In this document: one piece after another, positions 4,107 to 32,000 of the stretch
Layout: every line of letters starts with the position of its first letter
Numbering within the stretch: position 1 is the first letter of the stretch
NCBI RefSeq assembly: GCF_000020385.1
Contig: NC_010814.1
Span: forward strand, 780,001 to 812,000
DNA from: Trichlorobacter lovleyi SZ
GTDB lineage: Bacteria; Desulfobacterota; Desulfuromonadia; Geobacterales; Pseudopelobacteraceae
Length of the DNA stretch: 32,000 bases
Reading direction: 5' to 3'
Notes under the pieces: generated by a model
Seen by the model: only the letters and a program-made list of their open reading frames with translations
Told to the model about the DNA's origin: nothing
Databases searched by the model: none
Made by a program: the position numbers and the translations under genes

Positions 4107-4892
4107 ATGAGCATACATGCAAGCGCAATAGTCCACCCCTCTGCACAGCTGGCTGAAGGGGTGGAGGTCGGTCCTTACGCCATTATTGAAGAACATGCCA
4201 TCATTGGTAAGGGGACCAGTATCGGAGCTCATGCGGTGATCGGCAAGTGGACCGAGCTGGGGGAGAATAACCAGATCTACCACATGGCTTCGGTCGGTGC
4301 TGCTCCGCAAGACCTGAAGTACAAGGGTGAAGAATGCTGGACCCGTCTGGGCAACGGTAACGTGATCCGTGAGTTTGCCACCATTCACCGTGGCACGGTA
4401 ACCGGTCATGCCGAGACCGTGATGGGCAACAATAACCTGATGATGGCCTATTCCCATGTGGCCCATGACTGTACGGTCGGCAACGGGGTGGTCATGGCCA
4501 ATGCCGCTACGCTGGCCGGTCATGTCACGGTACAGGATAATGTCATCCTGGGCGGCCTGGTGGCGATCCATCAGTTTGTCACCATCGGTGCCTATGCCAT
4601 GTTGGGGGGAGGCACACTGGTGGGGATGGATATCCCGCCGTACATGATTGCAACCTCGGGTGGCAAGCGGGAGGCGCAACTGCGTGGCCTGAACCTGATC
4701 GGTTTGAAGCGTCGTGGTTTTAGTGATGAAGCGATCAGCGGATTGAAAAAGGCGTATAAGACGCTCTTTATGGCCCATCTGAAACAGGCCGACGCCATTG
4801 CAAAGATCAGGTCCGAGATTGTCGGCTGTGCCGAGGTCGATACCCTGCTGGCCTTTATCGAAGCTTCGCAGCGCGGGATCTGCCGCGGATGA
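4107..4892 (+). CDS. lpxA: Acyl-ACP:UDP-GlcNAc (or UDP-GlcNAc3N) O/N-acyltransferase LpxA
   Basis: MSIHASAIVHPSAQLAEGVEVGPYAII start, hexapeptide-repeat beta-helix, C-terminal helical domain (LRGLNLIGLKRRGFS). The internal ATG at 4107 (after GGGAGAG) was chosen over the ORF-track start at 4077, which overlaps fabZ. Confidence 0.95.
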   Translation: MSIHASAIVHPSAQLAEGVEVGPYAIIEEHAIIGKGTSIGAHAVIGKWTELGENNQIYHMASVGAAPQDLKYKGEECWTRLGNGNVIREFATIHRGTVTGHAETVMGNNNLMMAYSHVAHDCTVGNGVVMANAATLAGHVTVQDNVILGGLVAIHQFVTIGAYAMLGGGTLVGMDIPPYMIATSGGKREAQLRGLNLIGLKRRGFSDEAISGLKKAYKTLFMAHLKQADAIAKIRSEIVGCAEVDTLLAFIEASQRGICRG

Positions 4893-5833
4893 GCAGGCTG
4901 CGCACGGCGGTTATAGGGGTCGGCTATCTTGGTAACTTTCACGCCCAGAAGTACGCTGCCCTGGAAGGGGTTGAACTGATCGGGGTAGTGGATGCCGATG
5001 CTGCCCGCGGGACTGAGGTGGCTTCATCCTGCGGATGTCAGGCCTTTACCGATTATCGTGAGCTGATCGGCCGTGTGGATGCGGTCAGTGTGGTGGTGCC
5101 GACCCAGTATCACCATCAGGTTGCAAAAGAGTTCCTGACGGCCGGCGTGCATGTCCTGATCGAGAAACCGATTACCGTTACCATTGAACAGGCCGATGAG
5201 CTGATCAGCCTGGCAGATGCAGGTAAACTGGTCTTTCAGGTGGGGCACCTGGAACGGTTTAATCCGGTGCTGATGGCGGTTGAAGAGGTGCTGATTGAAC
5301 CGTTGTTCGTGGAATCAGTACGGATTGCACCATTCAAACCCCGTGGTACCGATGTTAACGTGGTGCTGGATCTGATGATCCACGACATTGAGATCATCCA
5401 GCATCTGGTCAAGTCGCCGGTGGCAAAAATTGATGCCATTGGCGCACCGGTCTTTACCGGCGAAGAGGATATTGCCAATGCCCGGATTGCCTTTGAGAAC
5501 GGTTGCGTTGCCAATGTCACGGCCAGCCGGATCAGCCTCAAGAGTGAGCGCAAGATGCGGATCTTCCAGCGCGATGCCTACCTGACGCTCGATTTTCAGA
5601 ACAAGAAGGTGCTGGTCGCCAAAAAAGGGGAAGGCGAGTTGATGCCGGGTATTCCCAATGTGCAGGTCAAGGAGCAGGAATTGGGGCAGTCTGATCCATT
5701 GCTATCCGAGATCATCTCGTTCGTGACGGCGATCACCGAAGGCAGGCAGCCCCAGGTCAGTGGCCGCGATGGCAGAATGGCACTGGAAACCGCATTAAAA
5801 ATCAATGAAGCACTGAACAGGATACGCCCATGA
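4889..5833 (+). CDS. gnnA: Gfo/Idh/MocA-family NAD-dependent oxidoreductase, GnnA-like (candidate UDP-GlcNAc 3-dehydrogenase)
   Basis: N-terminal Rossmann motif RTAVIGVGYLGNFHAQKY, EKP motif (VLIEKPIT), 314 aa. Inserted between lpxA and lpxB and paired with a DegT aminotransferase, as described for gnnA/gnnB. ATGA overlap with the lpxA stop. Confidence 0.75.
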   Translation: MSRLRTAVIGVGYLGNFHAQKYAALEGVELIGVVDADAARGTEVASSCGCQAFTDYRELIGRVDAVSVVVPTQYHHQVAKEFLTAGVHVLIEKPITVTIEQADELISLADAGKLVFQVGHLERFNPVLMAVEEVLIEPLFVESVRIAPFKPRGTDVNVVLDLMIHDIEIIQHLVKSPVAKIDAIGAPVFTGEEDIANARIAFENGCVANVTASRISLKSERKMRIFQRDAYLTLDFQNKKVLVAKKGEGELMPGIPNVQVKEQELGQSDPLLSEIISFVTAITEGRQPQVSGRDGRMALETALKINEALNRIRP

Positions 5834-6924
5834 TACCGATGGTAGACCTTAAAACCCAGTACCACCATTTGAAGAGTGAGATTGATGCAGCGGTGTTGGA
5901 TGCCCTGGAAAGCACCCAGTTCATCCTGGGCCCCAACGTTACCGGGCTTGAAAAAGAAACTGCCGGCTATCTTGCTACTGCTCAGGCCGTTGGCTGCGCC
6001 TCAGGTACTGATGCTCTGCATCTGGCTGTACTGGCAGCGGGAATCAAGCCGGGTGATGAGGTGATCACCACACCGTTCACCTTCATCGCCACAGCTGAAG
6101 CGATCTGTTATGCCGGCGCTGTGCCGGTCTTTGTGGATGTTGACCCTCAAACCTTTAACATCGTACCGGAGCTGATCGAGCAGGCGATTACCCCCCGAAC
6201 CAAGGCGGTGATCCCGGTACACCTCTTTGGTCAGCCGGCTGACATGGCTGCCATCGGTGCCATCTGCGAACGTCATAACCTGGTGCTGATCGAGGATTGT
6301 GCCCAGTCCTTTGGCGCTGCCATTGCCGGCCGTATGACCGGCTCGATTGGTGCTTTTGGTTGTTTCAGCTTCTTCCCCAGCAAGAACCTGGGCGGTTACG
6401 GTGATGGTGGTCTGGTGACCGCTGCCACGGCGGAAGGGGCTGAAACCCTTAAGATGCTGCGCAATCACGGCAGCAAGGTGCGTTATCACCATGACGTGAT
6501 CGGTTTTAACAGCCGCCTTGACGACCTGCAGGCAGCAATTCTCAGGGTCAAGCTGCGCCATATTGATCGTTTCAACCAGGAGCGCCGCCGGGTTGCCCAC
6601 CGTTACTCCGAAGGGCTGAAAGATGTCGTCACCGTGCCGTTTGAGGATGGCAAGGGTGTACATGTCTACCACCAGTACACAATTCTGACCGATCAGCGGG
6701 ACACGATTATGGCGGCGTTGAGCGAGCAGCAGATTGCCAGTGCAGTCTATTACCCGATCCCGTTGCATCGTCAGAACGTCTTTGCTGAACAGTGCCGGGG
6801 GATTTCACTGCCGGTGACGGAATCGATAGCGGCGCGTTGTATGTCCTTACCGGTCTATCCGGAAATGACCGATCAGCAGGTAGATCAGGTGATTGCAGCA
6901 GTACGCGGGGCATTGGCTGGCTAA
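5830..6924 (+). CDS. gnnB: DegT/DnrJ/EryC1-family PLP aminotransferase, GnnB-like (candidate UDP-3-keto-GlcNAc transaminase)
   Basis: N-terminus IPMVDLKTQYHHLKSEIDAAVLDAL..FILGPNV. Active-site Lys context FSFFPSKNLGGYGDGG, plus LRNHG. ATGA overlap with gnnA and TAATG overlap with lpxB. Confidence 0.75.
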   Translation: MIPMVDLKTQYHHLKSEIDAAVLDALESTQFILGPNVTGLEKETAGYLATAQAVGCASGTDALHLAVLAAGIKPGDEVITTPFTFIATAEAICYAGAVPVFVDVDPQTFNIVPELIEQAITPRTKAVIPVHLFGQPADMAAIGAICERHNLVLIEDCAQSFGAAIAGRMTGSIGAFGCFSFFPSKNLGGYGDGGLVTAATAEGAETLKMLRNHGSKVRYHHDVIGFNSRLDDLQAAILRVKLRHIDRFNQERRRVAHRYSEGLKDVVTVPFEDGKGVHVYHQYTILTDQRDTIMAALSEQQIASAVYYPIPLHRQNVFAEQCRGISLPVTESIAARCMSLPVYPEMTDQQVDQVIAAVRGALAG

Positions 6925-20530: not shown

Positions 20531-21460
20531 ATGAATATATTACTCTATCACTTTGGGTATCGCGGAGACATACTTGTTGTGGGACAGCACTTTACCCGAG
20601 AGCTGCTTACTCGCTACCCGCATGCCGATATAGACCTGATGGTGCGTCCAAGGATGGTTGAAGCCGGTGACTTCATGATGCCTTTGGGGGTGTACCGGGA
20701 TATACTTTGGGGAGAGAAAAAGGATTTCCATCTCTCCAAAGAGTCGTATGATCTTGCGTACATGATCGATGAAAATGTGTATCCTGAAGGAAATCTGAGA
20801 ACTCCATTCACTAAAGCAGGTTTCCCGTTCCGGCATCACAAATTGTCGTTAACAGTGATGCCGGAGGACAAAGCTCTGGCAACCCGTATTATTGCAGACC
20901 TCCCCCGTCCCATCATCGCTGTCCAGTCGGATATGTCAAGGAAATGGCCTGCTGAGCGATGTGCTGCACTTAATCAGCGACTTGCAGCTCTTGGCAGTTT
21001 GGTAACTCTCGGTCCAGATGAACGATATCCATCCTGTGAAAAACCACTTTCGTTTCTGCAGTCGGCAGCCCTTGCCGCCTCAGCTGACATATTCGTTGGA
21101 ATTGACTCGGGAATAGCCCACGCTGCGGCACTGATGGGGGTTCAAACGGTTTTGATTCCTCCCGTTTTTCCCGAATCCTGGATCTCGCCAACGGAATACG
21201 CCAATCCGTTTATTGCCGATGAAGCCTGCAGACATATTAGCATCCGTCCGCACCCTGAAGATTTTTGCGGGCATTATTTCTGCCTACGCCCAACGGCGCA
21301 AGGTGGTATCCAACCGCCGGGTGGTAACTCCTTATTGGTAAAATGTAGATGGAAAAAACGGTTCGGAATCTTCAAAGGGAACAGCTGTTTTAACAAAATC
21401 TCGGTGGACGCGTTATATGATGTGGTTGTCGCTGCCATGAAGAAACGCAGGCTGATCTGA
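20531..21460 (+). CDS. GT9-like glycosyltransferase (short heptosyltransferase-family member)
   Basis: N-terminal ILLYHFGYRGDILVVGQHFTRELLTRYPHADIDLMV and C-terminal IFVGIDSGIAHAAALMGVQTVLI match the two GT9 signature regions. At 309 aa it is shorter than canonical WaaC/WaaF. Confidence 0.6.
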   Translation: MNILLYHFGYRGDILVVGQHFTRELLTRYPHADIDLMVRPRMVEAGDFMMPLGVYRDILWGEKKDFHLSKESYDLAYMIDENVYPEGNLRTPFTKAGFPFRHHKLSLTVMPEDKALATRIIADLPRPIIAVQSDMSRKWPAERCAALNQRLAALGSLVTLGPDERYPSCEKPLSFLQSAALAASADIFVGIDSGIAHAAALMGVQTVLIPPVFPESWISPTEYANPFIADEACRHISIRPHPEDFCGHYFCLRPTAQGGIQPPGGNSLLVKCRWKKRFGIFKGNSCFNKISVDALYDVVVAAMKKRRLI

Positions 21461-21500
21461 GCCTCATTAGGTGTATACTGCGTAAAATATGAGGTCATGC

Positions 21501-22541
21501 ATGTCTAATGTGAAAATCATAGTTATCACGCTGGTAAAGGATGAGGCCTGGATGCTTGACAGGTTTCTTGCCACTTGCAGTGTGTTTGCCGACCACATTA
21601 TCGTGTCGGACGAGAGTACGGGGCTCGACAGCAGTCTCGAAATTTATAAAAAATATCCGAAAGTGACGCTGCACCACAACTCAGGAGCGCCCGTACGGGG
21701 AGACATCCGAAGAAAATTCGTCTTCGACGAGGCCCGCAAGATCTCCTGCGACAAGCGGATCATTATCGCGATAGACTCGGACGAGATTCTTTCCGCCAAT
21801 CTGCTGCACAGTCCGGAATGGCAGACTGTCCTTGCCGCGGAGCCGGGCACCCTCTTTCATCTGCAGTGGGTGAGTTTATGGAAGAATTGCAATTATTACC
21901 GGGTTGAAGCCAAGTATCAATTCGGCGGCTATAACCGGCAAATTTGGATAGACGACGGCGTTTCCGAAATCCCTGCCATCGGATATCAGGAAATGCATAT
22001 GGCATACAATCCCCTCCATGCCAGAACGCACGTATACCTCAACGAGATTGTTTGTTTGCACTATCAGTATTGCAATTGGGAGCGAATGGAGTCAAAGCAC
22101 CGCTACTATCGTGCCCATGAGAAGGCTGATATCGGGAAACTTTCAGACATAGCAATTTATCGGATATACGGCCATGCACATTCACGAAAGATTGAAGTCA
22201 AACCCTCGCTTTCTTGTTGGTTTGATGGTTGGATCTCCAGGGGGATTGACATGACAAGTACAGCGCGTGATGAGCTCACTCACTTTGATATAAGTGTGTT
22301 GAGACTATTTGAATCTCATGGGGCGGGCTTCTTTCTTAACCAGGATTTATGGAAGGTTGATTGGGAGTACCTTACAAATCGCGCCAAGGAGCTTGGATTG
22401 TTATCCGCTGATTTTAAGTATACACGGCCTCCAAAGACGATCCGAAGCAGATTGTTTCACGCGTACATGAAAACGGCTTTTGATGTTAAAATTTTGAAAT
22501 CAGTTGAAAAAAGATTATTTCCAAAAGGTCGTGTATATTAA
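21501..22541 (+). CDS. Putative GT-A fold glycosyltransferase (family 2-like), otherwise uncharacterised
   Basis: VKIIVITLVKDEAWMLDRFLATCSVFADHIIVSDESTG and the DxD-type motif IIAIDSDEIL. ATG 21501 has GAGG 6 nt upstream, so it was preferred over ATG 21489. Confidence 0.5.
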   Translation: MSNVKIIVITLVKDEAWMLDRFLATCSVFADHIIVSDESTGLDSSLEIYKKYPKVTLHHNSGAPVRGDIRRKFVFDEARKISCDKRIIIAIDSDEILSANLLHSPEWQTVLAAEPGTLFHLQWVSLWKNCNYYRVEAKYQFGGYNRQIWIDDGVSEIPAIGYQEMHMAYNPLHARTHVYLNEIVCLHYQYCNWERMESKHRYYRAHEKADIGKLSDIAIYRIYGHAHSRKIEVKPSLSCWFDGWISRGIDMTSTARDELTHFDISVLRLFESHGAGFFLNQDLWKVDWEYLTNRAKELGLLSADFKYTRPPKTIRSRLFHAYMKTAFDVKILKSVEKRLFPKGRVY

Positions 22542-22577: not shown

Positions 22578-23351
22578 ATGAAAGTAGTCATTCTTGCCGG
22601 CGGTTTTGGCACACGTATTAGCGAAGAGTCCCATCTGAAACCAAAACCGATGATTGAAATCGGAGAACGGCCGATACTTTGGCATATCATGAAGACTTAT
22701 TCCCACTATGGATTTAACGATTTTATCATATGCTTGGGCTACAAGGGGTACTGCATTAAGGAGTACTTTGCTCATTATTTCCTTCATGAGTCCGATGTCA
22801 CCTTTGATTTTACCAATGAGAATCAAAGAATAATACACAACCATTCTGCAGAACCGTGGCGTGTCACTCTGGTGAATACTGGCATTGAAACCATGACCGG
22901 TGGTCGGGTTAAGAGAATCAGCAGATATATCGGCGATGAGCCGTTTATGCTCACCTATGGCGATGGTGTTGCAGATATAAGTATTGATAATTTGGTGGAA
23001 TATCATAAAAAGCACGGTAAGCTTGCTACGGTTAGCTCTATTCAGCCAGCCGGACGTTTTGGAGCCCTCGATCTTGATGCGGATAACCTGATCCATGGAT
23101 TCAAGGAAAAGCCCAAAGGTGATGGAGCCTGGATTAATGGTGGTTTTTTCGTGATGCAGCCGGAAGTGTTCAGGTATATCGACGGGGACACTACTGTTCT
23201 GGAGAGGGAACCGCTTGAGAGATTAGCACACGATGGACAGTTAGTGGCTTACAAGCATACTGGTTTCTGGCAACCGATGGATTCAATGCGGGATAAAAAT
23301 CAGCTTGAAGAACTATGGAAAACCGGGTCTGCCCCCTGGAAGGTGTGGTAA
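22578..23351 (+). CDS. rfbF: Glucose-1-phosphate cytidylyltransferase
   Basis: MKVVILAGGFGTRISEESHLKPKPMIEIGERPILWHIMKTYSHYGFNDFIICLGYKGY, LTYGDGVADI and FWQPMDSMRDK are near-canonical RfbF/DdhA motifs. GGAGA precedes the ATG. Confidence 0.95.
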   Translation: MKVVILAGGFGTRISEESHLKPKPMIEIGERPILWHIMKTYSHYGFNDFIICLGYKGYCIKEYFAHYFLHESDVTFDFTNENQRIIHNHSAEPWRVTLVNTGIETMTGGRVKRISRYIGDEPFMLTYGDGVADISIDNLVEYHKKHGKLATVSSIQPAGRFGALDLDADNLIHGFKEKPKGDGAWINGGFFVMQPEVFRYIDGDTTVLEREPLERLAHDGQLVAYKHTGFWQPMDSMRDKNQLEELWKTGSAPWKVW

Positions 23352-24424
23352 TGGGGTTCTGGCAAAACAAGAAAGTCTTTGTCACCGGTCATACCGGATT
23401 CAAAGGAAGTTGGCTGACTCTTTGGCTGCTCAAGCTTGGTGCCGAGGTGCATGGTTATGCTCTGGAACCGCCAACCGAGCCGAGTCTCTTCAACCTGTTG
23501 GGCCTCAACTCTCCCTCCCCACAACTTTCCAGTCAGATTGCCGATATCCGAGATAGCTCCGCTCTTGCAACTGCTATACAGCAAGCCCAGCCGGAAATTG
23601 TCATTCATATGGCAGCTCAACCGTTGGTACGAGATTCGTACCTTATTCCTGTAGACACTTATGCTATTAACATCATGGGCACAGTTAATATGCTTGAGGC
23701 GATTCGCCACTGTCCAAGCGTCAGGGCGGTGGTCAATGTTACTACTGACAAGTGTTACGAAAATAGGGAATGGGTCTGGGGATATCGCGAAGACGAGCCG
23801 ATGGGGGGATTTGATCCCTACTCCAGCAGTAAAGGGTGTTCAGAGCTGGTCACTGCAGCATACCGGCAATCATATTTTAACTCCCGACAACCCACGCAGC
23901 ATGGAGTAGCGTTGGCCTCCGCCAGAGCGGGTAATGTGATTGGGGGCGGTGATTGGGCAGCCGACCGACTGGTTCCTGATATTGTCCGGGCTTTGTTGAA
24001 TAAGGAACCGGTTAGCATTCGCAATCCCCTTGCTGTTCGCCCCTGGCAACATGTTCTTGAACCACTTTCCGGCTATTTATGTCTGGCACGGCACCTATAT
24101 GAGCATGGAACTGCCTTTGCTGAGGGCTGGAACTTCGGACCAGCGGATGAAGATGCCAAGCCGGTCGCCTGGATTGTCGATCATCTCTGCAAGCTTTGGG
24201 GCAATTCAGCCTCATATACAATCGTTAGTGGTGATCACCCCCATGAAGCTCAGTATCTGAAACTGGATTGCTCCAAAGCAAAGATGCGTCTGGGCTGGAA
24301 ACCGCGATGGAATCTGGAAACTGCGCTGGAACAGGTTGTTACATGGACAAAGGCATATAGCAAAAAGGAGTCGATACGCACCATATGTCTGAACCAAATA
24401 GCGAGTTACGAGGCTCAAGCGTAA
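23351..24424 (+). CDS. rfbG: CDP-glucose 4,6-dehydratase
   Basis: FWQNKKVFVTGHTGFKGSWLTLWLLKLGAEVHGY, TTDKCYEN, DPYSSSKGCSE (YxxxK), RAGNVIGGGDW. TAATG junction with rfbF at 23351. The ORF-track start at 23315 overlaps rfbF. Confidence 0.94.
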   Translation: MGFWQNKKVFVTGHTGFKGSWLTLWLLKLGAEVHGYALEPPTEPSLFNLLGLNSPSPQLSSQIADIRDSSALATAIQQAQPEIVIHMAAQPLVRDSYLIPVDTYAINIMGTVNMLEAIRHCPSVRAVVNVTTDKCYENREWVWGYREDEPMGGFDPYSSSKGCSELVTAAYRQSYFNSRQPTQHGVALASARAGNVIGGGDWAADRLVPDIVRALLNKEPVSIRNPLAVRPWQHVLEPLSGYLCLARHLYEHGTAFAEGWNFGPADEDAKPVAWIVDHLCKLWGNSASYTIVSGDHPHEAQYLKLDCSKAKMRLGWKPRWNLETALEQVVTWTKAYSKKESIRTICLNQIASYEAQA

Positions 24425-24444
24425 TTCGAATTGAGGAGTATGTT

Positions 24445-25785
24445 TTGAGTACAGACCAGAAAGAACTGCTACGACAGCGCGTGGTGAAAGCCGCATGTGA
24501 ATATTATCAGCATGCTCACGTTCACCATAAAGAATTTGAACCTGGGGACCGCATTCCATACGCAGGCAGAATTTTTGATGATGCGGAAATAAGTGCCTTG
24601 ATCGATTCGTCCCTTGAGTTCTGGCTCACTAGCGGTCGATATGCGGAAAAATTCGAAAAAGAGTTTGCTGATTATATCGGCGTGCAGCATTGCTCACTGA
24701 CCAACTCGGGTTCGTCGGCCAATTTACTGGCTTTTATGGCCCTTACTTCTCCAAAACTTGGAGAGCGCAGGATACATAGGGGGGATGAGGTCATCACTGT
24801 AGCTGCAGGCTTCCCTACAACAGTTGCGCCTATCATCCAGTACGGCGCAGTGCCGGTTTTCGTAGATGTCTGTCTGCCCACTTACAATATTGATGTCACC
24901 CGGCTTGATGCCGCCCTTTCTGATAAAACCAAGGCGGTCATGGTTGCCCATACTCTTGGCAATCCCTTTGACATCACCGCAGTGAAGGCGTTTTGCGACA
25001 AGCACAACCTGTGGCTTATAGAAGACAACTGTGATGCCCTTGGGTCACGCTATTTATTTAGAGGTCAATGGTGCTATACCGGCACGATCGGGCATATCGG
25101 CACCTCTAGTTTCTACCCGCCTCACCACATGACTATGGGGGAGGGGGGCGCGGTTTATACCAATGATCCCTTGATAAAGCGCCTGATCGAATCGTTTCGT
25201 GACTGGGGACGTGACTGTTGGTGCCCGTCAGGACGGGACAACACCTGCAGTAACCGCTTTGGTCAGCAGTTTGGTGAACTGCCGTTTGGGTACGACCATA
25301 AGTATGTCTACTCCCACTTCGGCTATAATCTGAAGGTGACTGATATGCAGGCTGCCATTGGCTGTGCTCAACTACAAAAACTGCCCGGTTTTGTTGAAGC
25401 ACGCAAACGAAACTGGCAGATGCTGCGAGATGGACTGGCAGATCTGCAGGATCAACTTATTTTGCCAGAGGCGGCTGAAAACAGCGACCCTTCCTGGTTT
25501 GGGTTCCTGCTGACTGTACGTAGGGAATCAGGATTTACACGGGATAGATTGGTTGCCCAGCTTGAATTGCACGGCATTCAAACCCGTATGCTCTTTGCCG
25601 GTAATCTGACCAAGCACCCTTGCTTTGATGAGATGCGAAAAAGCGGTGAAGGGTATCGAGTGGCGGATGATCTTTCTGTAACTGACCAGATTATGCGTGA
25701 TACTTTCTGGGTAGGGGTGTATCCGGGGATGACGGAGCCAATGATTGAGCATATGATCAGTGTTATGAGGCAGCAGTTGAGGTGA
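24445..25785 (+). CDS. rfbH: CDP-4-keto-6-deoxy-D-glucose 3-dehydrase (E1; RfbH/DdhC/AscC type, PMP and Fe-S dependent)
   Basis: By-eye alignment to Salmonella RfbH over the whole length: LTNSGSSANLLAFMALTSPKLGERR, GDEVITVAAGFPTTVAP, SFYPPHHMTMGEGGAV (His replaces the aminotransferase Lys), DWGRDCWCPSGRDNTCSNRFGQQFG (Fe-S cysteines), YNLKVTDMQAA, DPSWFGF. TTG 24445 lies 6 nt after GAGGAG and is preferred. The ORF-track ATG at 24385 overlaps rfbG by 40 nt. Confidence 0.9.
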   Translation: MSTDQKELLRQRVVKAACEYYQHAHVHHKEFEPGDRIPYAGRIFDDAEISALIDSSLEFWLTSGRYAEKFEKEFADYIGVQHCSLTNSGSSANLLAFMALTSPKLGERRIHRGDEVITVAAGFPTTVAPIIQYGAVPVFVDVCLPTYNIDVTRLDAALSDKTKAVMVAHTLGNPFDITAVKAFCDKHNLWLIEDNCDALGSRYLFRGQWCYTGTIGHIGTSSFYPPHHMTMGEGGAVYTNDPLIKRLIESFRDWGRDCWCPSGRDNTCSNRFGQQFGELPFGYDHKYVYSHFGYNLKVTDMQAAIGCAQLQKLPGFVEARKRNWQMLRDGLADLQDQLILPEAAENSDPSWFGFLLTVRRESGFTRDRLVAQLELHGIQTRMLFAGNLTKHPCFDEMRKSGEGYRVADDLSVTDQIMRDTFWVGVYPGMTEPMIEHMISVMRQQLR

Positions 25786-26665: not shown

Positions 26666-26718
26666 TCACTGATAACACAGTGGTAGTGTCCGGGAAACAT
26701 TCAGCGAGGTTTGCATGT

Positions 26719-28515
26719 ATGGAAATGAAGGTTTCAGATTACATTGCGTCATTTATGGTTGAAAACGGCATCACCGACCTGTTTACCGTGACGGGTGGTG
26801 GTGCAATGCACCTTAATGATTCATTGGGTAACCATCCTGAGCTGGTTTCAACCTATAACCATCATGAGCAGGCATGTGCAATTGCGGCAGAAGCGTATGC
26901 CCGGCTAACCGGCAGGATTGCTTTGGTCTGTGTGACCAGTGGTCCTGGTGGCACCAATGCGATTACTGGTGTTATGGGAGGGTGGGTCGATTCAATCCCG
27001 ATGTTTGTAATTTCGGGGCAAGTTAAGTTTTCAACAACTATTGCTTCTACCAACGTGCCGCTTCGACAGTTAGGGGACCAAGAGTTTAATATCGTCGATT
27101 CCGTGCGGTGTATGACCAAGTATGCAGTGATGTTGACGGAGCCTGAGTCCATTGCCTACCACCTTGAGCGAGCTCTCTTCCTTGCCGGACATGGCAGGCC
27201 AGGCCCTGTGTGGCTTGACATCCCGCTGAATGTACAGGGGGCTCTCATTGAAACAGATGCGCTCCAGCATTACGACCCGTCTGAAGATGCTGTTCAGGTG
27301 GTTGCGCCACCTTCCAATGATGTGTATTCCCAGCTTATTGAAAAAATTTGTAATGCCCGAAAACCTGTAATACTCGCCGGTAGCGGTATTCGTCTTTCCG
27401 GTAGTCATGATGTCTTTATACAGCTACTTGAAAAACTTAACATCCCTGTTGTCACAGCGTGGAATGCCCATGACAATCTATGGGACGATCACCCCTTGTA
27501 TTGTGGGCGTCCAGGCACTATCGGCACACGAGGCGGTAATTTTGTTGTCCAAAACTGTGACCTGCTGCTATCGCTTGGTTGCCGGATGAATATTCGCCAG
27601 ATAAGTTATAATTGGGAAAATTTTGCGAAAGATGCGTATCTCGTCGCCGTAGATATTGATGCGGGAGAATTGAAAAAGCCAACATTAACAGTAGATATGC
27701 CGATTCATGCGGATTTGGGTGATTTTTTGCCGGGGCTGCTTGGGGCGATGCAAGCCGATCATAAGCTTGGAAATATCGAATGGTTGGAGTGGTGTCGGAA
27801 GATAAACCAGAAGTATCCTGCGGTACAGCCCCATCACTACACCCCCCACTCTCCAGTCAACCCGTATGTTTTCATGGACAGGCTCTCACAGTATCTTGAT
27901 GAGGGAGATGTGACCGTGACAGGAAACGGCAGTGCCTGTGTGTGCTCATTCCAGGCCATGGTTATCAAAAAAAATCAGCGGCTCTTCACAAACTCAGGGT
28001 GTGCCAGCATGGGCTACGGTCTTCCCGCTGCGCTTGGTGCTGCTGTCGCTCTTGGCGGCAAACGGGTAATCTGCCTTGACGGTGATGGTAGTATTCAGAT
28101 GAATTTGCAGGAGTTACAGACTATTATTCACAATAAACTCAACTTGAAAATATTCTGGTTAAATAACGACGGGTACCACTCCATTCGTCAAACCCAAACC
28201 AATATTTTTAATGCGAGGTTTTGCGGCGTAAATGAAACCAGCGGTATAAGTTTTCCCAGTGCGGATAAAATTGCACGAGCATATGGTTTTGAATTTATTA
28301 AAATTGATGCCGTTGAAGACATGGATGAAAAAATAAAGAAAGTCTTGCTATCGGATACCTCTATTGTGTGCGAAGTGATTCTAAATCCTGCTCAGGGGTT
28401 TGAGCCCAAGTTGTCTTCACGCATACTTCAGGACGGTACAATGGTTTCGCCATCGCTTGAAGACATGTTTCCATTTTTGAGCGCTGAAGAAATGAAAATG
28501 AATGCTTACAAATAA
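26719..28515 (+). CDS. Thiamine-diphosphate-dependent enzyme, acetolactate-synthase large-subunit-like (YerE-like candidate C-branching enzyme)
   Basis: N-terminal Pyr domain (DLFTVTGGGAMHLNDS, HEQACAIAAEAYARLTG, VTSGPGGTNAITGV). C-terminal ThDP-binding motif GDGSIQMNLQELQTI...NNDGY (28081-28174). Length 598 aa. ATG 26719 has GAGG 8 nt upstream. Confidence 0.85.
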   Translation: MEMKVSDYIASFMVENGITDLFTVTGGGAMHLNDSLGNHPELVSTYNHHEQACAIAAEAYARLTGRIALVCVTSGPGGTNAITGVMGGWVDSIPMFVISGQVKFSTTIASTNVPLRQLGDQEFNIVDSVRCMTKYAVMLTEPESIAYHLERALFLAGHGRPGPVWLDIPLNVQGALIETDALQHYDPSEDAVQVVAPPSNDVYSQLIEKICNARKPVILAGSGIRLSGSHDVFIQLLEKLNIPVVTAWNAHDNLWDDHPLYCGRPGTIGTRGGNFVVQNCDLLLSLGCRMNIRQISYNWENFAKDAYLVAVDIDAGELKKPTLTVDMPIHADLGDFLPGLLGAMQADHKLGNIEWLEWCRKINQKYPAVQPHHYTPHSPVNPYVFMDRLSQYLDEGDVTVTGNGSACVCSFQAMVIKKNQRLFTNSGCASMGYGLPAALGAAVALGGKRVICLDGDGSIQMNLQELQTIIHNKLNLKIFWLNNDGYHSIRQTQTNIFNARFCGVNETSGISFPSADKIARAYGFEFIKIDAVEDMDEKIKKVLLSDTSIVCEVILNPAQGFEPKLSSRILQDGTMVSPSLEDMFPFLSAEEMKMNAYK

Positions 28516-28524
28516 GGGTTACCA

Positions 28525-30120
28525 ATGAAATCTATTCAAATTCTTGATTGTACGCTACGTGACGGCGGTTTTGTCAATGACTGGAATTTTGGGCTGGGAA
28601 GCATGAAAAGCATTATCAGTCGGTTGGATAAAGCCGGCGTTGATATGGTTGAAATAGGCTTTATTGACGAGCGGCGTTCATATGATCCAAACAGGGCAAT
28701 TCAACCGGATACCCAGTCATTTCAAGCGGTATTACAGGGTCTTGATATCCGCAACTCATTGATACTTGGTATGGTTGATTATGGCACTTGCGACATTGAT
28801 AAGATAGCCCCCAAAGAGCATTCATATATCGACGGGATCAGGGTTATTTTTAAGAAAAAAGATCAAGATGCTGCACTCCGGTATCTGCAACAGATTAAGG
28901 CCAAAGGTTACAAAATATATGTTAACCCGGTATCTATTACTGGATACTCAGATGAAGAAATCTGCTCACTAATAGGCAAAATAAACGGTCTTGACCCTGA
29001 AGGGGTCTCTATTGTTGATACTTACGGGCTTATGCACCGGAAGGATCTCCTGCACTATTTCCGGCTGTTCGATAAATACCTGAGCAATCACATTACTTTA
29101 GGATACCATGCGCATAATAATTTCCAGCTTGTTTACGCGAATTCGATAGAGCTATGCGAATTGTTGGGTGAACGCAATATTATTATTGACAGTTCTCTCT
29201 ATGGCATGGGCAAAGGTGCGGGGAATGCAAATACCGAATTGATCGCCATGTACTACAATGAAAATATTAACAGCAAGTATGAAGTAGAACATCTGCTTGA
29301 AGCAATTGATGTTGATATTCTTAAGGAATATGCTAAGGCCCCGTGGGGTTATTCGCTGTCGTATTATCTTGCTGCATCTAACGACTGCCATCCTGATTAT
29401 GCGAAGTATTTGCTATCAAAGAAGACACTTGCGGTTAAGTCAGTCAATGAACTGCTTACTTCCCTGCCAGTTACCCATAAGCTGGCATTCAACAGAGAAC
29501 TGATTGAAAGGCTATATGTAGAATACCAGGACGTAGCTTGTAATGATGCCGCTGCTTATAGAAGACTTGCTGCAGAGATAACAGGCCGTAAGGTTCTTCT
29601 TATTGGGCCAGGTGCGTCCATAGTTAATGATGCAGATGCTATAATGTCTTATATTAAACAGAATAGTCCCGTCCTTATTTCAATTAATTTTATTAATGAC
29701 ATGTACCCTATTGACTATGTATTCATGGGAAATTCAAAAAGGTACAGCCAGTTTTTCCATAATCTGCATGGTACTAACAGAAACGCAAAAATAATTACGA
29801 CCTCAAATATTACGGCTTCTGGTGAGCATATTGACTTCGTATTCAACTATGGAAAACTTCTTGACGAGACTGAGGTTGTAAGAGACAACCCACTGCTTAT
29901 GATGTTAAACATATTAACTAAATTAGGCTGTGTAGATGTGACAATTGCCGGATTTGATGGCTATGACCAGAACGTAGCGCAGAATTACTATGATCAATAT
30001 ATTCCATTCTTATACTGTCATGATAACGTGCTGTTGAGAAATAGCGCTATAGCTAATAAACTTAAAGTTATTTCAAAAGATATGTCTATTCGTAGTATTA
30101 CCAAAACATTGTATTTATAA
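28525..30120 (+). CDS. Two-domain fusion: N-terminal DRE-TIM metallolyase (HMGL-like aldolase/pyruvate carboxyltransferase domain) plus C-terminal DUF115 (MptE/Maf)/GT42-sialyltransferase-like domain
   Basis: N-terminal domain: ILDCTLRDGG (metal-binding Asp), GYHAHNN (HxH metal ligands), GMGKGAGNANTEL. C-terminal domain, from about residue 345 (nt ~29557): VLLIGPGASI...VLISINF...YVFMGN and LNILTKLGCVDVTIAGFDGY. This parallels the GxGPS / N / G-x-D-x-Y layout of DUF115 and Cst-type transferases, as recalled from memory. Confidence 0.65.
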   Translation: MKSIQILDCTLRDGGFVNDWNFGLGSMKSIISRLDKAGVDMVEIGFIDERRSYDPNRAIQPDTQSFQAVLQGLDIRNSLILGMVDYGTCDIDKIAPKEHSYIDGIRVIFKKKDQDAALRYLQQIKAKGYKIYVNPVSITGYSDEEICSLIGKINGLDPEGVSIVDTYGLMHRKDLLHYFRLFDKYLSNHITLGYHAHNNFQLVYANSIELCELLGERNIIIDSSLYGMGKGAGNANTELIAMYYNENINSKYEVEHLLEAIDVDILKEYAKAPWGYSLSYYLAASNDCHPDYAKYLLSKKTLAVKSVNELLTSLPVTHKLAFNRELIERLYVEYQDVACNDAAAYRRLAAEITGRKVLLIGPGASIVNDADAIMSYIKQNSPVLISINFINDMYPIDYVFMGNSKRYSQFFHNLHGTNRNAKIITTSNITASGEHIDFVFNYGKLLDETEVVRDNPLLMMLNILTKLGCVDVTIAGFDGYDQNVAQNYYDQYIPFLYCHDNVLLRNSAIANKLKVISKDMSIRSITKTLYL

Positions 30121-30131
30121 GGTTGCGTCAA

Positions 30132-30797
30132 ATGGGAAAGACAGTATTTATAACTGGTGGTAGTAGAGGTATTGGCAAAGCGATAGTTGATGCATTTTCC
30201 AGAAATGGATATACAATAATAGCGCCAACAAGGGCTGAAATGGACCTTTCTTCTGATAGTTCAGTATTGAATTATTTTGAACGTAACAAAATACAAGTTG
30301 ATTGTATTGTCAATAATGCTGGTATAAATCCACTATCTCAAATTGAAAATGTAAATGATTGCGATATTGAAGAAGCTATAAATATTAATCTTAAAGCACC
30401 TATACTCATTGTGAGATCTCTTGTCTCGAGTATGAAAGAACGGAAATACGGACATATTGTTAATGTCTCATCTATTTGGGGAGTAGTTTCAAAAGAAAAG
30501 AGAACAGTTTATTCAATTACAAAAAATGGCTTACATGGTCTTACCAACACACTCGCCGTTGAGCTTGGCGCGTATAACATCCTCGTAAATACCGTATGTC
30601 CAGGTTTCACTAATACGGAGCTTACTAAAAAGAATGTCTCCACTGATGAGGCAAAAGCTATTGCCACAAATATTCCTCTCGGCAGATTTGCAGAGCCTGC
30701 TGAAATTGCTTCACTGATATATTTTCTTGGATCTGAACAAAATTCTTATATTACGGGTCAGAAAATAGTCATAGATGGAGGTTTTACAGTACTATGA
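30132..30797 (+). CDS. Classical short-chain dehydrogenase/reductase (FabG-like)
   Basis: TGGSRGIGKAIV (TGxxxGxG), NNAG, catalytic Ser in VNVSSIWG and YSITK (YxxxK), C-terminal GQKIVIDGGF. ATG 30132 was preferred over TTG 30123. Confidence 0.88.
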   Translation: MGKTVFITGGSRGIGKAIVDAFSRNGYTIIAPTRAEMDLSSDSSVLNYFERNKIQVDCIVNNAGINPLSQIENVNDCDIEEAININLKAPILIVRSLVSSMKERKYGHIVNVSSIWGVVSKEKRTVYSITKNGLHGLTNTLAVELGAYNILVNTVCPGFTNTELTKKNVSTDEAKAIATNIPLGRFAEPAEIASLIYFLGSEQNSYITGQKIVIDGGFTVL

Positions 30798-31864
30798 ATA
30801 TTAATTCTTATAATAAAACATACACTGTTGATACAGTAGATGTTATCGACTTGCAAAATTTTGTTGGTAGTTCTGTATACCTTATTGTTTTTGATAAGAA
30901 AGTGTATGATATATATAAAGGCACTGCTTTTAAGGACTTAGATGTAAGTAGAGCTGTTTTTTTAGAGGCCGATGAGAATTGTAAGACTATTGATACTGCT
31001 GTTGAAATATGCAAAATAATGGCTGATATTCCATTTAATAAAAATAGTATCTTAATATCTATTGGGGGGGGAATCATACAGGATATAACTGGGTTTGCTG
31101 CCAATATATACAATAGAGGGATACGATGGATTTTTATTCCAACTACTCTTCTTGCGCAATGTGATAGTTGTATAGGCGGCAAAACATCATTAAATCTTAT
31201 GAATTATAAAAATATTCTGGGAACATTTTATGCGCCGGACAGGATAATGATCGATTTGAATTTTGTAACCACCTTGTCAGAAGACGATTATTTAAGTGGA
31301 CTTGGAGAAGTGGCAAAATTCAATATAATGGCTGCACATGACGGTATAGAGCTACTCGAAAGACACATTGATAGGCTTCTGCACCGAGATATTGAATGTC
31401 TGCGTGCCTTTTTGAAACGTTCTTTGGAGTTTAAGAAAAAATTTATTGAAGAGGATGAGTTTGATAAGGGTGTACGTAACCTCCTTAATTTTGCCCATAC
31501 CTTTGGTCATGCTTTTGAGTCTGTAAGCCATTACGCCATCCCGCACGGTCAGGCAGTTACATTGGGTTTGCTGATGGCTAATATGATCTCCTTTGATCGT
31601 GGGCTTCTTGACCACAATCTGAAGTGTCGGATAGAAAAACTGTGTGTACGGCTAATTTCAGTAAAGCTTGACTACCATTGGTTTGAGCCGAGTAGTATTA
31701 TTGGGGCAATGAAGAGGGATAAAAAGAGGACATCTGAGCAGTTGACGGCAGTGCTCTTTAAAAGCGATTTAGGGCTTGAAATTGTTCATGACTTAAGGCC
31801 TGAAGAAGTAGAGCGAAGCTTGCTTGAGCTGATTTCGTATCTTAAATTGAGCAAGCTTTGCTAA
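30794..31864 (+). CDS. 3-dehydroquinate-synthase-like sugar phosphate cyclase / metal-dependent NAD oxidoreductase superfamily protein
   Basis: GGGIIQDITGFAANIYNRGIRWIFIPTTLLAQCDSCIGGKTSLN parallels the DHQS motif GGGvvgDlaGFaAatymRGvrfiqvPTTLLAqvDSSvGGKtgvN. YKNILGTFYAP is present. The three metal-ligand positions are conserved: GLGEVAKF (Glu), NFAHTFGHAFE (His), IPHGQAV (His). ATGA overlap with the SDR gene. Confidence 0.8.
   Translation: MNINSYNKTYTVDTVDVIDLQNFVGSSVYLIVFDKKVYDIYKGTAFKDLDVSRAVFLEADENCKTIDTAVEICKIMADIPFNKNSILISIGGGIIQDITGFAANIYNRGIRWIFIPTTLLAQCDSCIGGKTSLNLMNYKNILGTFYAPDRIMIDLNFVTTLSEDDYLSGLGEVAKFNIMAAHDGIELLERHIDRLLHRDIECLRAFLKRSLEFKKKFIEEDEFDKGVRNLLNFAHTFGHAFESVSHYAIPHGQAVTLGLLMANMISFDRGLLDHNLKCRIEKLCVRLISVKLDYHWFEPSSIIGAMKRDKKRTSEQLTAVLFKSDLGLEIVHDLRPEEVERSLLELISYLKLSKLC
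31064..31071 (+). repeat. Homopolymeric G8 tract inside the DHQS-like gene (codons 91-93, the GGG of the nucleotide-binding loop)
   Basis: Direct count: att then eight consecutive g at 31064-31071, in a gene that is otherwise very AT-rich. Confidence 0.95.
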
Positions 31865-31937
31865 GCCTTTGTATTGTGTACAGAGATGGTATTCACTTTG
31901 TAGCATACCTCAACCAGTACATACAGAGGTGTTGACT

Positions 31938-32000
31938 TTGAACAAAAATATTCCTTTTCTTGATCTGAAGGCTGCTTATCTGGAACTTAAAGAAGAGCTG
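31938..32000 (+). CDS. DegT/DnrJ/EryC1-family sugar aminotransferase, 3'-truncated by the window edge (first ~21 codons only)
   Basis: The frame reads (L/M)NKNIPFLDLKAAYLELKEEL, the characteristic N-terminus of this family (compare gnnB IPMVDLKTQYHHLKSEI in this window). TTG 31938 lies 8 nt after AGAGG. The GTG at 31929 is an in-frame alternative. Too short to appear in the ORF track. Confidence 0.55.
   Translation, partial: MNKNIPFLDLKAAYLELKEEL

Follow-up and report, generated by a model that had tools for sequence, protein, structure and literature searches.

The window analysed here, a stretch of 32,000 nucleotides of Trichlorobacter lovleyi SZ, holds lipid A and core genes (LpxD, FabZ, LpxA, LpxB, LpxK, WaaA, GT9 and MsbA-like), a run of sugar genes and, at its right-hand edge, an SDR gene, a gene for a DHQS homologue and the 5' end of a DegT gene (Table 1). 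A sequence-only reading had placed these last three genes at the distal end of an LPS locus; the LPS locus stands, while the supposed distal end is merely the edge of the window, beyond which the locus, as seen in related contigs, continues for 9 kb or more, up to a further GT9 heptosyltransferase. Equally, the low GC content claimed for the DHQS-like gene was found, at approximately 34%, with values of 0.33-0.35 over 29.5-31.5 kb compared with 0.55-0.62 in the backbone. The same window holds a GnnA/GnnB-like pair at 4889-6924, which, judged from gene content alone, looks to be its oxidise-then-transaminate pair.

The classical SDR, for which an alternative TTG start exists at 30123, shows the motifs TGxxxGIG and YxxxK in its translation, and its best NCBIfam matches all fall under the equivalog cutoffs. 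Its stop codon overlaps the start of the DHQS-like gene in an ATGA at 30794-30797, and the SDR is translationally coupled to that gene. The DHQS-like protein carries the motifs SIGGGIIQD and PTTLLAQCDSCIGGK, and the metal-ligand positions E172, H235 and H251 are present and invariant family-wide. The ORF positions, the overlap and the motifs quoted in the earlier reading are thus all present, including the intact nucleotide loop and the three metal-ligand positions.

Upstream, the genes for a CDP-sugar are followed by an extended SDR, a ThDP-dependent enzyme and an aldolase. The best PDB match of the ThDP enzyme, whose ORF has an alternative GTG start at 26680, is 8rph (JanthE, YerE-like) with 418 bits, followed by 5ahk with 258 bits, which we take to be YerE of P. 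protegens (PpYerE), and by acetolactate synthases with at most 222 bits. The 292-aa PF01370 protein that adjoins the ThDP gene is without match to any specific model and is a candidate YerF-like side-chain ketoreductase. In the aldolase, residues 1-265 constitute a DmpG/BphI-like HMGL TIM barrel and residues ~267-531 a Rossmann-like domain, which had no match in Pfam even at E <=10; the AF2 model of this domain has a pLDDT of 88.8 and Foldseek gives weak SteA matches (E 2e-3, TM 0.3-0.39).

Table 1. Genes of the sugar cluster and its right-hand border in the window
Feature	Position	Strand	Evidence
Glucose-1-phosphate cytidylyltransferase (DdhA/RfbF type)	22578..23351	+	TIGR02623 433.9 bits (cutoff 300)
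CDP-glucose 4,6-dehydratase (DdhB/RfbG type)	23315..24424	+	TIGR02622 519.7 bits (cutoff 278)
RfbH/DdhC (E1) CDP-6-deoxy-4-hexulose 3-dehydrase	24385..25785	+	NF011936 745 bits (cutoff 423)
Extended SDR (epimerase/reductase family), 292 aa	25787..26665	+	PF01370 1e-22, no equivalog
YerE-like ThDP-dependent carboligase, 598 aa	26719..28515	+	three TPP_enzyme domains
Two-domain pyruvate aldolase	28525..30120	+	PF00682 6e-20; 4-hydroxy-2-oxovalerate aldolase models; PDB 3dxi/1nvm
SDR, classical, FabG-like, 221 aa from ATG	30132..30797	+	adh_short_C2 153.9 bits (1e-45 range)
DHQS homologue, family TIGR04425, 356 aa	30794..31864	+	TIGR04425, DHQ_synthase, DHQS_C
DegT-family sugar aminotransferase, 5' end	31938..32000	+	full gene in L005, L001

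The final 63 nt of the window encode LNKNIPFLDLKAAYLELKEEL. That the downstream ORF is an aminotransferase was borne out by the sequence past position 32000 in a contig identical to the window across 11,207 nt (L005) and in a 97.5%-identical contig (L001), where a complete PF01041 DegT gene of 371-373 aa is found that stays under the cutoffs of all PseC, ArnB and WecE-type models. Between the DHQS-like gene and DegT the GC content makes a sharp step, from 33-40% on the low side to 53-62% on the DegT side, and across DegT itself it climbs to 0.53-0.57, from about 35% before it. A promoter and terminator scan of the stretch from the aldolase to DegT gave fewer sites than shuffled sequence, and none in the spacer between the DHQS-like gene and DegT.

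Conserved partners and family placement of the DHQS homologue

Neighbourhoods of the DHQS-like gene were compared in 11 independent genomic contexts across several bacterial groups. An approximately 600-aa TPP (YerE-like ThDP) enzyme and a pyruvate aldolase stand beside the gene in every one of them, a ~221-aa SDR is located immediately upstream in ten, mostly with the same 4-nt overlap, and a DdhA/RfbF homologue of 255-261 aa occurs in nine; genes for an NDP-4-keto-6-deoxyhexose are also conserved neighbours, and in most contexts a 292-312-aa extended-SDR homologue belongs to the cluster or lies close to it. The surroundings are glycan clusters in all 11 contexts, with shikimate-pathway genes beside the TIGR04425 gene in none. 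On the other hand, a small DegT immediately downstream of the DHQS-like gene is restricted to one context of the 11, that of this lineage, where the GC content jumps from about 35% to about 55% between the two genes. The proposed cassette of SDR, DHQS-like gene and DegT, and with it the DHQS-like/DegT pairing, therefore does not hold: DegT is outside the conserved unit, goes with the host-GC block downstream and probably serves a different sugar pathway. The true partners of the DHQS-like gene, missed by the earlier reading, are the upstream aldolase, the ThDP enzyme and the CDP-sugar genes, a link of TIGR04425 to YerE-type clusters that is absent from the family name and from the literature searched. 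In two contexts (L007 and L091) a ~260-aa HpcH/HpaI aldolase replaces the two-domain aldolase, and the occupation of one slot by aldolases of two unrelated folds, HMGL-like and HpcH/HpaI, suggests that pyruvate aldol addition is the activity needed there.

The DHQS-like protein matches TIGR04425 with 439.9 bits (cutoff 400), its residues 3-348 aligning to positions 1-346 of the 348 of the model, while the score against the aroB model TIGR01357 is 265.7 bits, under the cutoff of 305; the Pfam domains DHQ_synthase and DHQS_C are matched with 126 and 109 bits. TIGR04425 is named 'AroB-related putative sugar phosphate phospholyase (cyclizing)' in NCBIfam, where it is rated a 'hypothetical equivalog', and several close homologues in NCBI bear this name. 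A literature search on TIGR04425, on AroB-related or AroB-like proteins and on YerE with dehydroquinate found no functional study. Among PDB entries, DHQS is matched with 131-170 bits, EEVS with 104, DOIS with 98 and DDGS with 89 bits.

In a first search, more than 7,000 DHQS-superfamily proteins were scored, most of which are probably ordinary AroB; the best 120, at 48-99% identity, include proteins of Trichlorobacter, Smithella, Clostridium, Subdoligranulum and Bacteroidales. A profile search of genome contigs with the family alignment retrieved mostly canonical AroB and a single true TIGR04425 member (L011), along with three sister-clade loci (L012, L013 and L016) and an AroB outgroup; canonical AroB prevailed because it shares the pattern HTFGHA[FI]E. 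In a neighbour-joining tree, 22 TIGR04425 members and L011 form a single clade in 50 of 50 bootstraps, apart from 33 canonical AroB, so that the tight clustering with bona fide AroB that the earlier reading had named as its test is absent. Its view that the gene is not the housekeeping aroB is upheld by the score under the TIGR01357 cutoff, the separate clade and the location amid sugar genes in an island of low GC, and we likewise agree that a DHQS-superfamily enzyme in LPS sugar biosynthesis is involved.

In the sister clade, an SDR also lies directly upstream of the DHQS homologue. L012 and L013 contain a CMP-type cytidylyltransferase, a D-2-hydroxyacid dehydrogenase and a SIS_2 isomerase, in L013 with an additional HpcH aldolase, and L016 contains a TPP enzyme and an SDR. 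As these partner enzymes all use 2-keto acids or ulosonates, their presence argues that the product keeps its C2 ketone and is not cyclised.

Thirteen catalytic and binding positions (R108, D124, K130, N140, E172, K175, K214, R228, N232, H235, H239, H251 and K310/311) are invariant in the TIGR04425 family and common to it and the 33 canonical AroB. Their counterparts in the A. nidulans DHQS are, as we assume, R130, D146, K152, N162, E194, K197, K250, R264, N268, H271, H275, H287 and K356, which presumably cover the DAHP-, phosphate-, carboxylate- and metal-binding roles of DHQS; on this mapping, the Arg/Lys that bind the carboxylate of DAHP are also kept. To our knowledge, sugar-phosphate cyclases that use neutral sugars do not need these carboxylate-binding residues. 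The invariance of all DHQS binding residues fits a substrate that bears, besides a phosphate, the head group of a 2-keto-3-deoxy acid. Beside the catalytic residues the clade has substitutions of its own at Q96, W112, C126, K215, D224 and N263 (compared with AroB, G to Q96, F/Y to W112, S to C126, A to K215 and E to D224), which could account for an altered outcome.

A proposed route to an acyl-branched sugar and its alternatives

Clusters for acyl-branched sugars have been described with YerE/YerF for yersiniose A, ErwE/F/I/J for erwiniose, MMAR_2331/2332 for caryophyllose and MyGE/MygI/MygF for gastriose, and for the latter three sugars a scheme has been outlined in which an aldolase is followed by ThDP-dependent ligation to CDP-4-keto-3,6-dideoxyglucose and by a reductase (Steitz et al., 2022; PMC9306805). 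The parts of this scheme are present at the locus, namely a YerE-like ThDP carboligase, a predicted pyruvate aldolase and genes for an NDP-4-keto-(3,)6-deoxyhexose acceptor. The DHQS-like gene, judged from sequence and gene neighbourhood, most likely helps to build a long carbon-branched LPS sugar and not an aminocyclitol. Our preferred explanation, for the whole of which we regard the chances as evenly balanced, is that a Trichlorobacter (Geobacter) lovleyi-like host acquired 22.6-31.9 kb horizontally, as an 'acyl-branched sugar' cluster of the yersiniose/erwiniose/caryophyllose type that lies inserted in its lipid A/core locus and would make a caryophyllose-like product via DHQS-type phosphate elimination.

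Three predicted activities of this route are shown by homology: DdhA, DdhB and RfbH would make CDP-4-keto-3,6-dideoxyhexose, the pyruvate aldolase would supply 4-hydroxy-2-keto acids, and the YerE-like ThDP enzyme would decarboxylate a 2-keto acid and add the acyl anion at C4 of the sugar. In the proposed sequence of steps, the aldolase would join pyruvate to an aldose phosphate, the simplest candidate being erythrose-4-phosphate, with a DAHP-like 3-deoxy-2-heptulosonate 7-phosphate as the product. The TIGR04425 DHQS homologue would then perform only the first half of DHQS chemistry, in which C5 is oxidised with NAD+, phosphate is lost by beta-elimination and re-reduction follows, and the coupled SDR would reduce the resulting 6-ketone. 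The donor would be an omega-deoxy polyhydroxy 2-keto acid (3,7-dideoxyheptulosonate) with its 2-keto acid function intact for the ThDP enzyme, which could graft this omega-deoxy 2-ulosonic acid onto CDP-4-keto-3,6-dideoxyhexose. After ligation, the 292-aa reductase may reduce the side-chain ketone to yield a caryophyllose-like long C-branched 3,6-dideoxyhexose, which a glycosyltransferase of the locus may add to the LPS core. The DHQS-like step could also fall before the aldolase, on the aldehyde, or after the ligation, on the side chain.

Several points count against this explanation. An E3/DdhD-type reductase was sought within the window and not found, the conserved C-terminal domain of the aldolase is an unexplained piece, and 'cyclizing' in the TIGR04425 name, a guess of the NCBI curators, speaks against a model without cyclisation. 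Furthermore, the enol-pyranose intermediate of DHQS cyclises readily unaided, so that a non-cyclising outcome needs active protonation or fast capture.

That the DHQS homologue instead completes the cyclisation is unlikely, although the complete DHQS catalytic set is conserved and the family name points in this direction. A dehydroquinate-like carbocycle would arise either from the free ulosonate phosphate or, after the ThDP ligation, from the phosphorylated side chain, the SDR would reduce the ring ketone and the glycan would bear a cyclitol-type unit or branch; carbocyclic sugars such as caryose and bradyrhizose occur in LPS. However, closing the free acid destroys the 2-keto acid required by the ThDP partner, which is present in all 11 contexts, and the same loss would affect the 2-hydroxyacid dehydrogenase and the CMP-transferase that accompany the gene at two of three loci in the sister clade, while closing after ligation leaves the retained carboxylate-binding Arg/Lys unexplained. 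Caryose itself (4,8-cyclo-3,9-dideoxynonose) was rejected as a product on chemical reasoning, since a DHQS-type closure leaves a ring CH2, which caryose lacks.

Decidedly improbable is also an action of the DHQS homologue and the SDR before the aldolase, whereby phosphate would be eliminated from a small aldose phosphate such as erythrose-4-phosphate to give a 4-deoxytetrose that is then joined to pyruvate. The final keto acid would be identical, and the gene order aldolase, SDR, DHQS-like gene is compatible with either sequence of steps; nevertheless, the conserved residues that in DHQS bind a carboxylate and hold a heptulosonate pyranose are better suited to a DAHP-like substrate than to a tetrose phosphate. 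In favour of this order counts that Steitz et al. (PMC9306805) gave no explanation of where the aldehyde for the caryophyllose donor comes from.

The aminocyclitol precedent offered by the sequence-only reading, in which a sugar-phosphate cyclase, a DegT aminotransferase and a dehydrogenase act as in BtrC/BtrS, draws on the adjacency of the three gene types in the window and is very unlikely: a DegT neighbour is found once in 11 contexts, behind a GC boundary, the protein is nearer to DHQS (131-170 bits) than to DOIS (98), EEVS (104) or DDGS and keeps the presumed carboxylate-binding positions, and the conserved partners are an aldolase, a ThDP enzyme and NDP-sugar genes. Slightly less likely still is a redundant or xenologous genuine 3-dehydroquinate synthase located in the locus by chance, for which the best PDB matches (DHQS, to 170 bits) and the full set of retained catalytic residues could be cited, against a score under the aroB and over the TIGR04425 cutoff, a distinct clade, a GC content of about 34%, and glycan clusters always and shikimate-pathway neighbours never in the 11 contexts. 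The second precedent, a KdnB-like oxidoreductase and a KdnA-like aminotransferase that oxidise and then transaminate a sugar, is extremely improbable: a distant relation in fold exists between DHQS and the group III alcohol dehydrogenases, and a weak Fe-ADH_2 match (E 9e-4) was obtained, but this match stays at 19.7 bits under the Pfam cutoff of 28, compared with 126 bits for DHQ_synthase and 109 for DHQS_C, so that the protein does not belong to the group III Fe-ADH enzymes. In addition, it retains every phosphate-binding residue of DHQS, DegT is not a conserved partner and the window's own such pair looks to be the GnnA/GnnB-like one.

Significance and comparison with known systems

Erwiniose, caryophyllose and gastriose are long C-branched sugars and rare surface antigens, the biosynthesis of which was outlined only in 2022 (PMC9306805), and according to a 2025 review (PMC12247030) more than 200 YerE-like clusters are predicted, the majority of them with unknown products. 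With the present analysis an uncharacterised, widespread DHQS-like family is tied to a subtype of YerE-like clusters, and DHQS chemistry is proposed to be reused on a keto-acid donor, as an NAD+-dependent phosphate elimination to an omega-deoxy ulosonic acid. If this is true, the source of terminal-deoxy polyol side chains would be explained, a textbook enzyme fold would gain a new reaction outcome, new chiral keto-acid donors would become available for ThDP biocatalysis and unusual surface sugars might be predicted from sequence. If, on the other hand, the enzyme cyclises, which is unlikely, many anaerobes would have in their LPS cores and flagellin glycans a C-branched sugar with a carbocycle that has not been seen before, shikimate-type chemistry having been recruited to glycan biosynthesis to form a dehydroquinate- or quinate-like ring, in or for the C4 side chain, out of a pyruvate-derived ulosonate phosphate.

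With AroB (TIGR01357; PDB 5hvn, 5eks, 3okf and 1dqs) the DHQS-like protein has in common, at approximately 35-40% identity, the fold, the sites for NAD and metal and all residues that contact the phosphate, carboxylate and hydroxyls of the substrate, whereas it differs in falling under the equivalog cutoff, in forming a separate clade and in a glycan context instead of the shikimate pathway; its product is probably not DHQ. DOIS BtrC, EEVS ValA and DDGS belong to the same superfamily and follow the same logic of oxidation, phosphate elimination and reduction, but are more distant (89-104 bits compared with 131-170 bits for DHQS) and act on neutral sugar phosphates, and a conserved BtrS-type aminotransferase partner is absent from TIGR04425 loci.

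In the literature consulted on the erwiniose, caryophyllose and gastriose clusters, including that of M. marinum, no DHQS homologue was found mentioned, which also counts against the proposed route; either the product differs here, or the deoxy-aldehyde of the studied clusters comes from elsewhere. Compared with the clusters of Steitz et al. (2022), the lovleyi cluster adds the coupled pair of SDR and DHQS homologue, its aldolase has an extra C-terminal domain of ~265 aa, and it is devoid of an ErwJ-type acetaldehyde dehydrogenase. Alike in both are the genes for CDP-4-keto-3,6-dideoxyhexose, the YerE-like carboligase, the DmpG/BphI-like or HpcH-like aldolase and the placement in a cell-surface glycan locus, while the counterpart of the reductase is the candidate 292-aa protein.

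Locus and protein family

The LPS locus named by the sequence-only reading is confirmed, the whole window being a lipid A/core locus (BamA, Skp, LpxD, FabZ, LpxA, a GnnA/GnnB-like pair, LpxB, an LpxL-like acyltransferase, PAP2, WaaA, LpxK, GT9, an MsbA-like transporter and more glycosyltransferases); the 'distal end' at which it placed a cassette of SDR, DHQS-like and DegT-family genes is merely the window edge, past which the locus extends for at least 9 kb. ORF scan and raw sequence agree on its ORFs, their coordinates and the ATGA overlap coupling the SDR to the DHQS-like ORF, which a 73-nt spacer separates from the third ORF. A search with the exact 356-aa protein recovered 22 contigs. The top homologue (99% identity) is labelled Trichlorobacter lovleyi. 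Contig L005 is identical to the window across all 11,207 shared bases and contig L001 is 97.5% identical downstream; in both, the third ORF is a complete DegT-family gene (371-373 aa), an aminotransferase as anticipated. Equally, the low GC content reported was recovered: the SDR and DHQS-like genes lie at 0.33-0.35, the backbone at 0.55-0.62.

From 18.5 to 31.9 kb, a GC mosaic of ~0.58 (backbone), 0.42-0.52 (GT and CDP-sugar genes), 0.33-0.41 (aldolase, SDR and DHQS-like genes) and then 0.53-0.62 is observed, and the island appears to have been put together from at least two foreign sources. Neither of the two ORFs preceding the CDP-sugar genes matches a Pfam family. In L001 and relatives, a Methyltransf_21 gene replaces the 346-350-aa ORF of the window and L005 strain; upstream gene content thus differs between strains and the island edge is therefore strain-variable. 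The pair between lpxA and lpxB, which we take to be the GnnA/GnnB arrangement, looks, judged by gene content alone, like the real oxidise-then-transaminate pair of the window; the UDP-GlcNAc3N made by GnnA and GnnB goes into lipid A whose backbone is 2,3-diamino-2,3-dideoxyglucose.

Location of features in the window and in related contigs
Feature	Contig	Positions	Description
Oxidoreductase and aminotransferase	window	4889-6924	GFO/IDH/MocA (314 aa) and DegT (364 aa), between lpxA and lpxB
Two ORFs	window	20531-22541	309 and 350 aa, just 5' of CDP-sugar genes
ThDP enzyme	window	26719-28515	598 aa, YerE-like
Aldolase	window	28525-30120	two-domain
Aldolase C-terminal domain	window	29323-30117	residues 267-531
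SDR	window	30132-30797	221 aa; adh_short_C2 (Pfam/NCBIfam), FabG-like, under all equivalog cutoffs
DHQS-superfamily ORF	window	30794-31864	356 aa; DHQ_synthase and DHQS_C (Pfam/NCBIfam)
Third ORF, 5' start	window	31938 to window edge	DegT-family gene
Region compared with the two ORFs, with Methyltransf_21 gene	L001	1-1752	
Block 3' of DHQS-like gene, past window end	L001	11145-19703	host-like GC; all members under equivalog cutoffs
Flagellin-linked locus	L007	4576-15818	Clostridium sp. LP20
Locus with extended SDR	L095	6393-9981	
Sister-clade locus	L012	5755-11070	
Sister-clade locus	L013	5044-11631	

The DHQS-like protein matches TIGR04425 ('AroB-related putative sugar phosphate phospholyase (cyclizing)', NCBIfam) over its full length (439.9 bits, cutoff 400) and stays below the cutoff of the aroB model TIGR01357 (265.7 bits, cutoff 305); literature searches with the family name were without result. 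Nearest in the PDB are true DHQS (131-170 bits), then EEVS ValA (104), DOIS (98) and DDGS (89 bits), with glycerol dehydrogenase marginal. A neighbour-joining tree was calculated from 22 family members, the L011 homologue, 3 remoter homologues and 33 canonical bacterial and archaeal AroB sequences. In it, TIGR04425 forms a single clade (50/50 bootstraps), which together with the distant homologues splits from canonical AroB (50/50 bootstraps); the protein is not a housekeeping aroB product, as had been stated. Invariant in the alignment are R108, D124, K130, N140, E172, K175, K214, R228, N232, H235, H239, H251 and K310/311, the predicted counterparts of every DHQS substrate, metal and phosphate residue, with roles presumed from A. 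nidulans DHQS numbering. Clade-specific substitutions adjoin them (Q96, W112, C126, K215, D224, N263 and, in TIGR04425 proper, S132, G171, N177, A234, P250); Cys126 is invariant, and 94% of canonical AroB carry Ser at this position.

Conserved partners

Eleven independent contexts were compared, comprising the window lineage, Clostridium sp. LP20, Candidatus Limiplasma and 8 metagenomic lineages. All 11 contain a TPP enzyme (573-607 aa) and a pyruvate aldolase, which is HMGL-like (531-534 aa) in 9 and of the HpcH/HpaI type (~260 aa) in 2. An SDR of 220-246 aa lies immediately 5' of the DHQS-like gene in 10/11, usually with the 4-nt overlap kept, while a glucose-1-phosphate cytidylyltransferase-like gene is present in 9/11 (dTDP-rhamnose genes instead in 1) and an RfbH/E1-type dehydrase in 6/11. 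A small DegT gene directly 3' is restricted to the window lineage, where a GC step from ~0.35 to ~0.55 falls exactly on the DHQS-like/DegT junction. The conserved unit therefore consists of aldolase, SDR, DHQS-like protein and ThDP enzyme with NDP-4-keto-6-deoxyhexose genes, and the cassette of SDR, DHQS-like protein and DegT is rejected as such a unit. Very probably, the DHQS-like gene acts in acyl-branched sugar synthesis and is not partnered with DegT.

With DegT, none of the PseC, ArnB, WecE and DesI models reaches its cutoff, and the gene most plausibly belongs to the downstream block, which in L001 holds DegT (373 aa), an HddC-like nucleotidyltransferase, an HddA-like GHMP kinase, a 312-aa extended SDR, a split transketolase (273 + 316 aa), a B12-binding radical SAM enzyme (HpnJ/BchE-like, 489 aa) and a second RfbH-like PLP enzyme (413 aa). 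This block seems to encode a sugar pathway of its own, again an unusual one, whose product may be another C-branched or C-methylated amino sugar.

The conserved C-terminal ~265 residues of the aldolase are fused to the HMGL-like part, homologues among the 120 best matches listed being 529-542 aa long, and are missing where an HpcH aldolase substitutes. This domain has no Pfam match; its AF2 model is confident (pLDDT 88.8) but only weakly resembles the fold of SteA, a regulator of cell division.

In one family context, L095, the ~221-aa SDR is absent and the aldolase gene is followed directly by the DHQS-like gene and a 297-aa extended SDR, so that the SDR partner may be replaceable. In L007, genes for TPP enzyme, HpcH aldolase, SDR, DHQS-like protein and CDP-sugar lie immediately 5' of flagellin and flagellar basal-body genes, a gene order implying that Firmicutes glycosylate their flagellin with a branched sugar of this class. 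In the sister clade (38-41% identity), too, an SDR lies directly 5' of the DHQS-like gene. In two of its three loci (L012, L013) the pair stands beside a CMP-Kdo/CMP-NeuAc synthetase-like CTP_transf_3 gene, a D-2-hydroxyacid dehydrogenase and a SIS_2 isomerase, together with methyltransferases; L013 has in addition an HpcH aldolase, a GFO/IDH/MocA oxidoreductase and a PF04199 'putative cyclase'. Such neighbours point to an uncharacterised CMP-activated deoxy-ulosonic acid pathway.

Proposed chemistry and its alternatives

A branched-sugar cluster with non-cyclising DHQS-like chemistry is the best explanation overall, to which we give an even chance; the specific chemistry is put forward more tentatively. 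The succession of aldolase and DHQS-like enzyme would parallel that of DAHP synthase and DHQS. Aldose phosphate and pyruvate would be joined by the aldolase to a 3-deoxy-2-ulosonate omega-phosphate, a kind of substrate which the retention of every DHQS binding residue suits. The DHQS-like enzyme would eliminate phosphate and leave the ring open, giving a 2,6-diketo-3,7-dideoxy acid. Reduced by the coupled SDR, this acid would become an omega-deoxy polyol keto acid; ligation to the CDP-sugar and reduction would yield a caryophyllose-like C6 side chain. Speculatively, Cys126 is a candidate proton donor diverting the enol.

Cyclisation to a carbocycle by the same enzyme is unlikely; retention of C2 as a ketone is favoured because the ThDP partner requires a 2-keto acid and because the partner enzymes in L012 and L013 likewise use 2-keto acids or ulosonates. 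Slightly less likely again is action on the aldehyde, ahead of the aldolase. The precedents invoked by the sequence-only reading, aminocyclitol formation by BtrC/BtrS and the KdnB/KdnA pair, both drop out along with DegT as partner, while its assignment to sugar biosynthesis stands; each of them, like a spare aroB, is highly improbable. The hypothesis put forward for the DHQS-like family is a specific one that applies widely and lends itself to direct testing.

Comparison with acyl-branched sugar clusters

In the window, the aldolase is preceded by DdhA (TIGR02623), DdhB (TIGR02622) and RfbH/E1 (NF011936), each above cutoff, then by a 292-aa protein of a reductase family and by the TPP enzyme; an E3 reductase is absent from the window. 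The second PDB match of the TPP enzyme, 5ahk (258 bits), annotated there as an acetolactate synthase, is presumably P. protegens YerE, and together with the best match, 8rph (418 bits), outscores all other acetolactate synthases. 8rph is JanthE, a YerE-like enzyme (PMC12188165). More than 200 YerE-like clusters have been predicted, the products of most being unknown (2025 review, PMC12247030). Erwiniose, caryophyllose and gastriose follow one common scheme, in which a pyruvate aldolase provides a gamma-hydroxy 2-keto acid for YerE-like ligation to CDP-4-keto-3,6-dideoxyglucose, followed by a YerF-like reductase (Steitz et al., PMC9306805). No mention of a DHQS homologue in acyl-branched sugar clusters was found in the accessible literature. 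The window cluster matches the common scheme gene for gene, with the 292-aa protein as the candidate YerF-like reductase and the SDR and DHQS-like pair as the extra; what is new is that a known type, the acyl-branched sugar cluster, has taken up a DHQS-like family so far uncharacterised.
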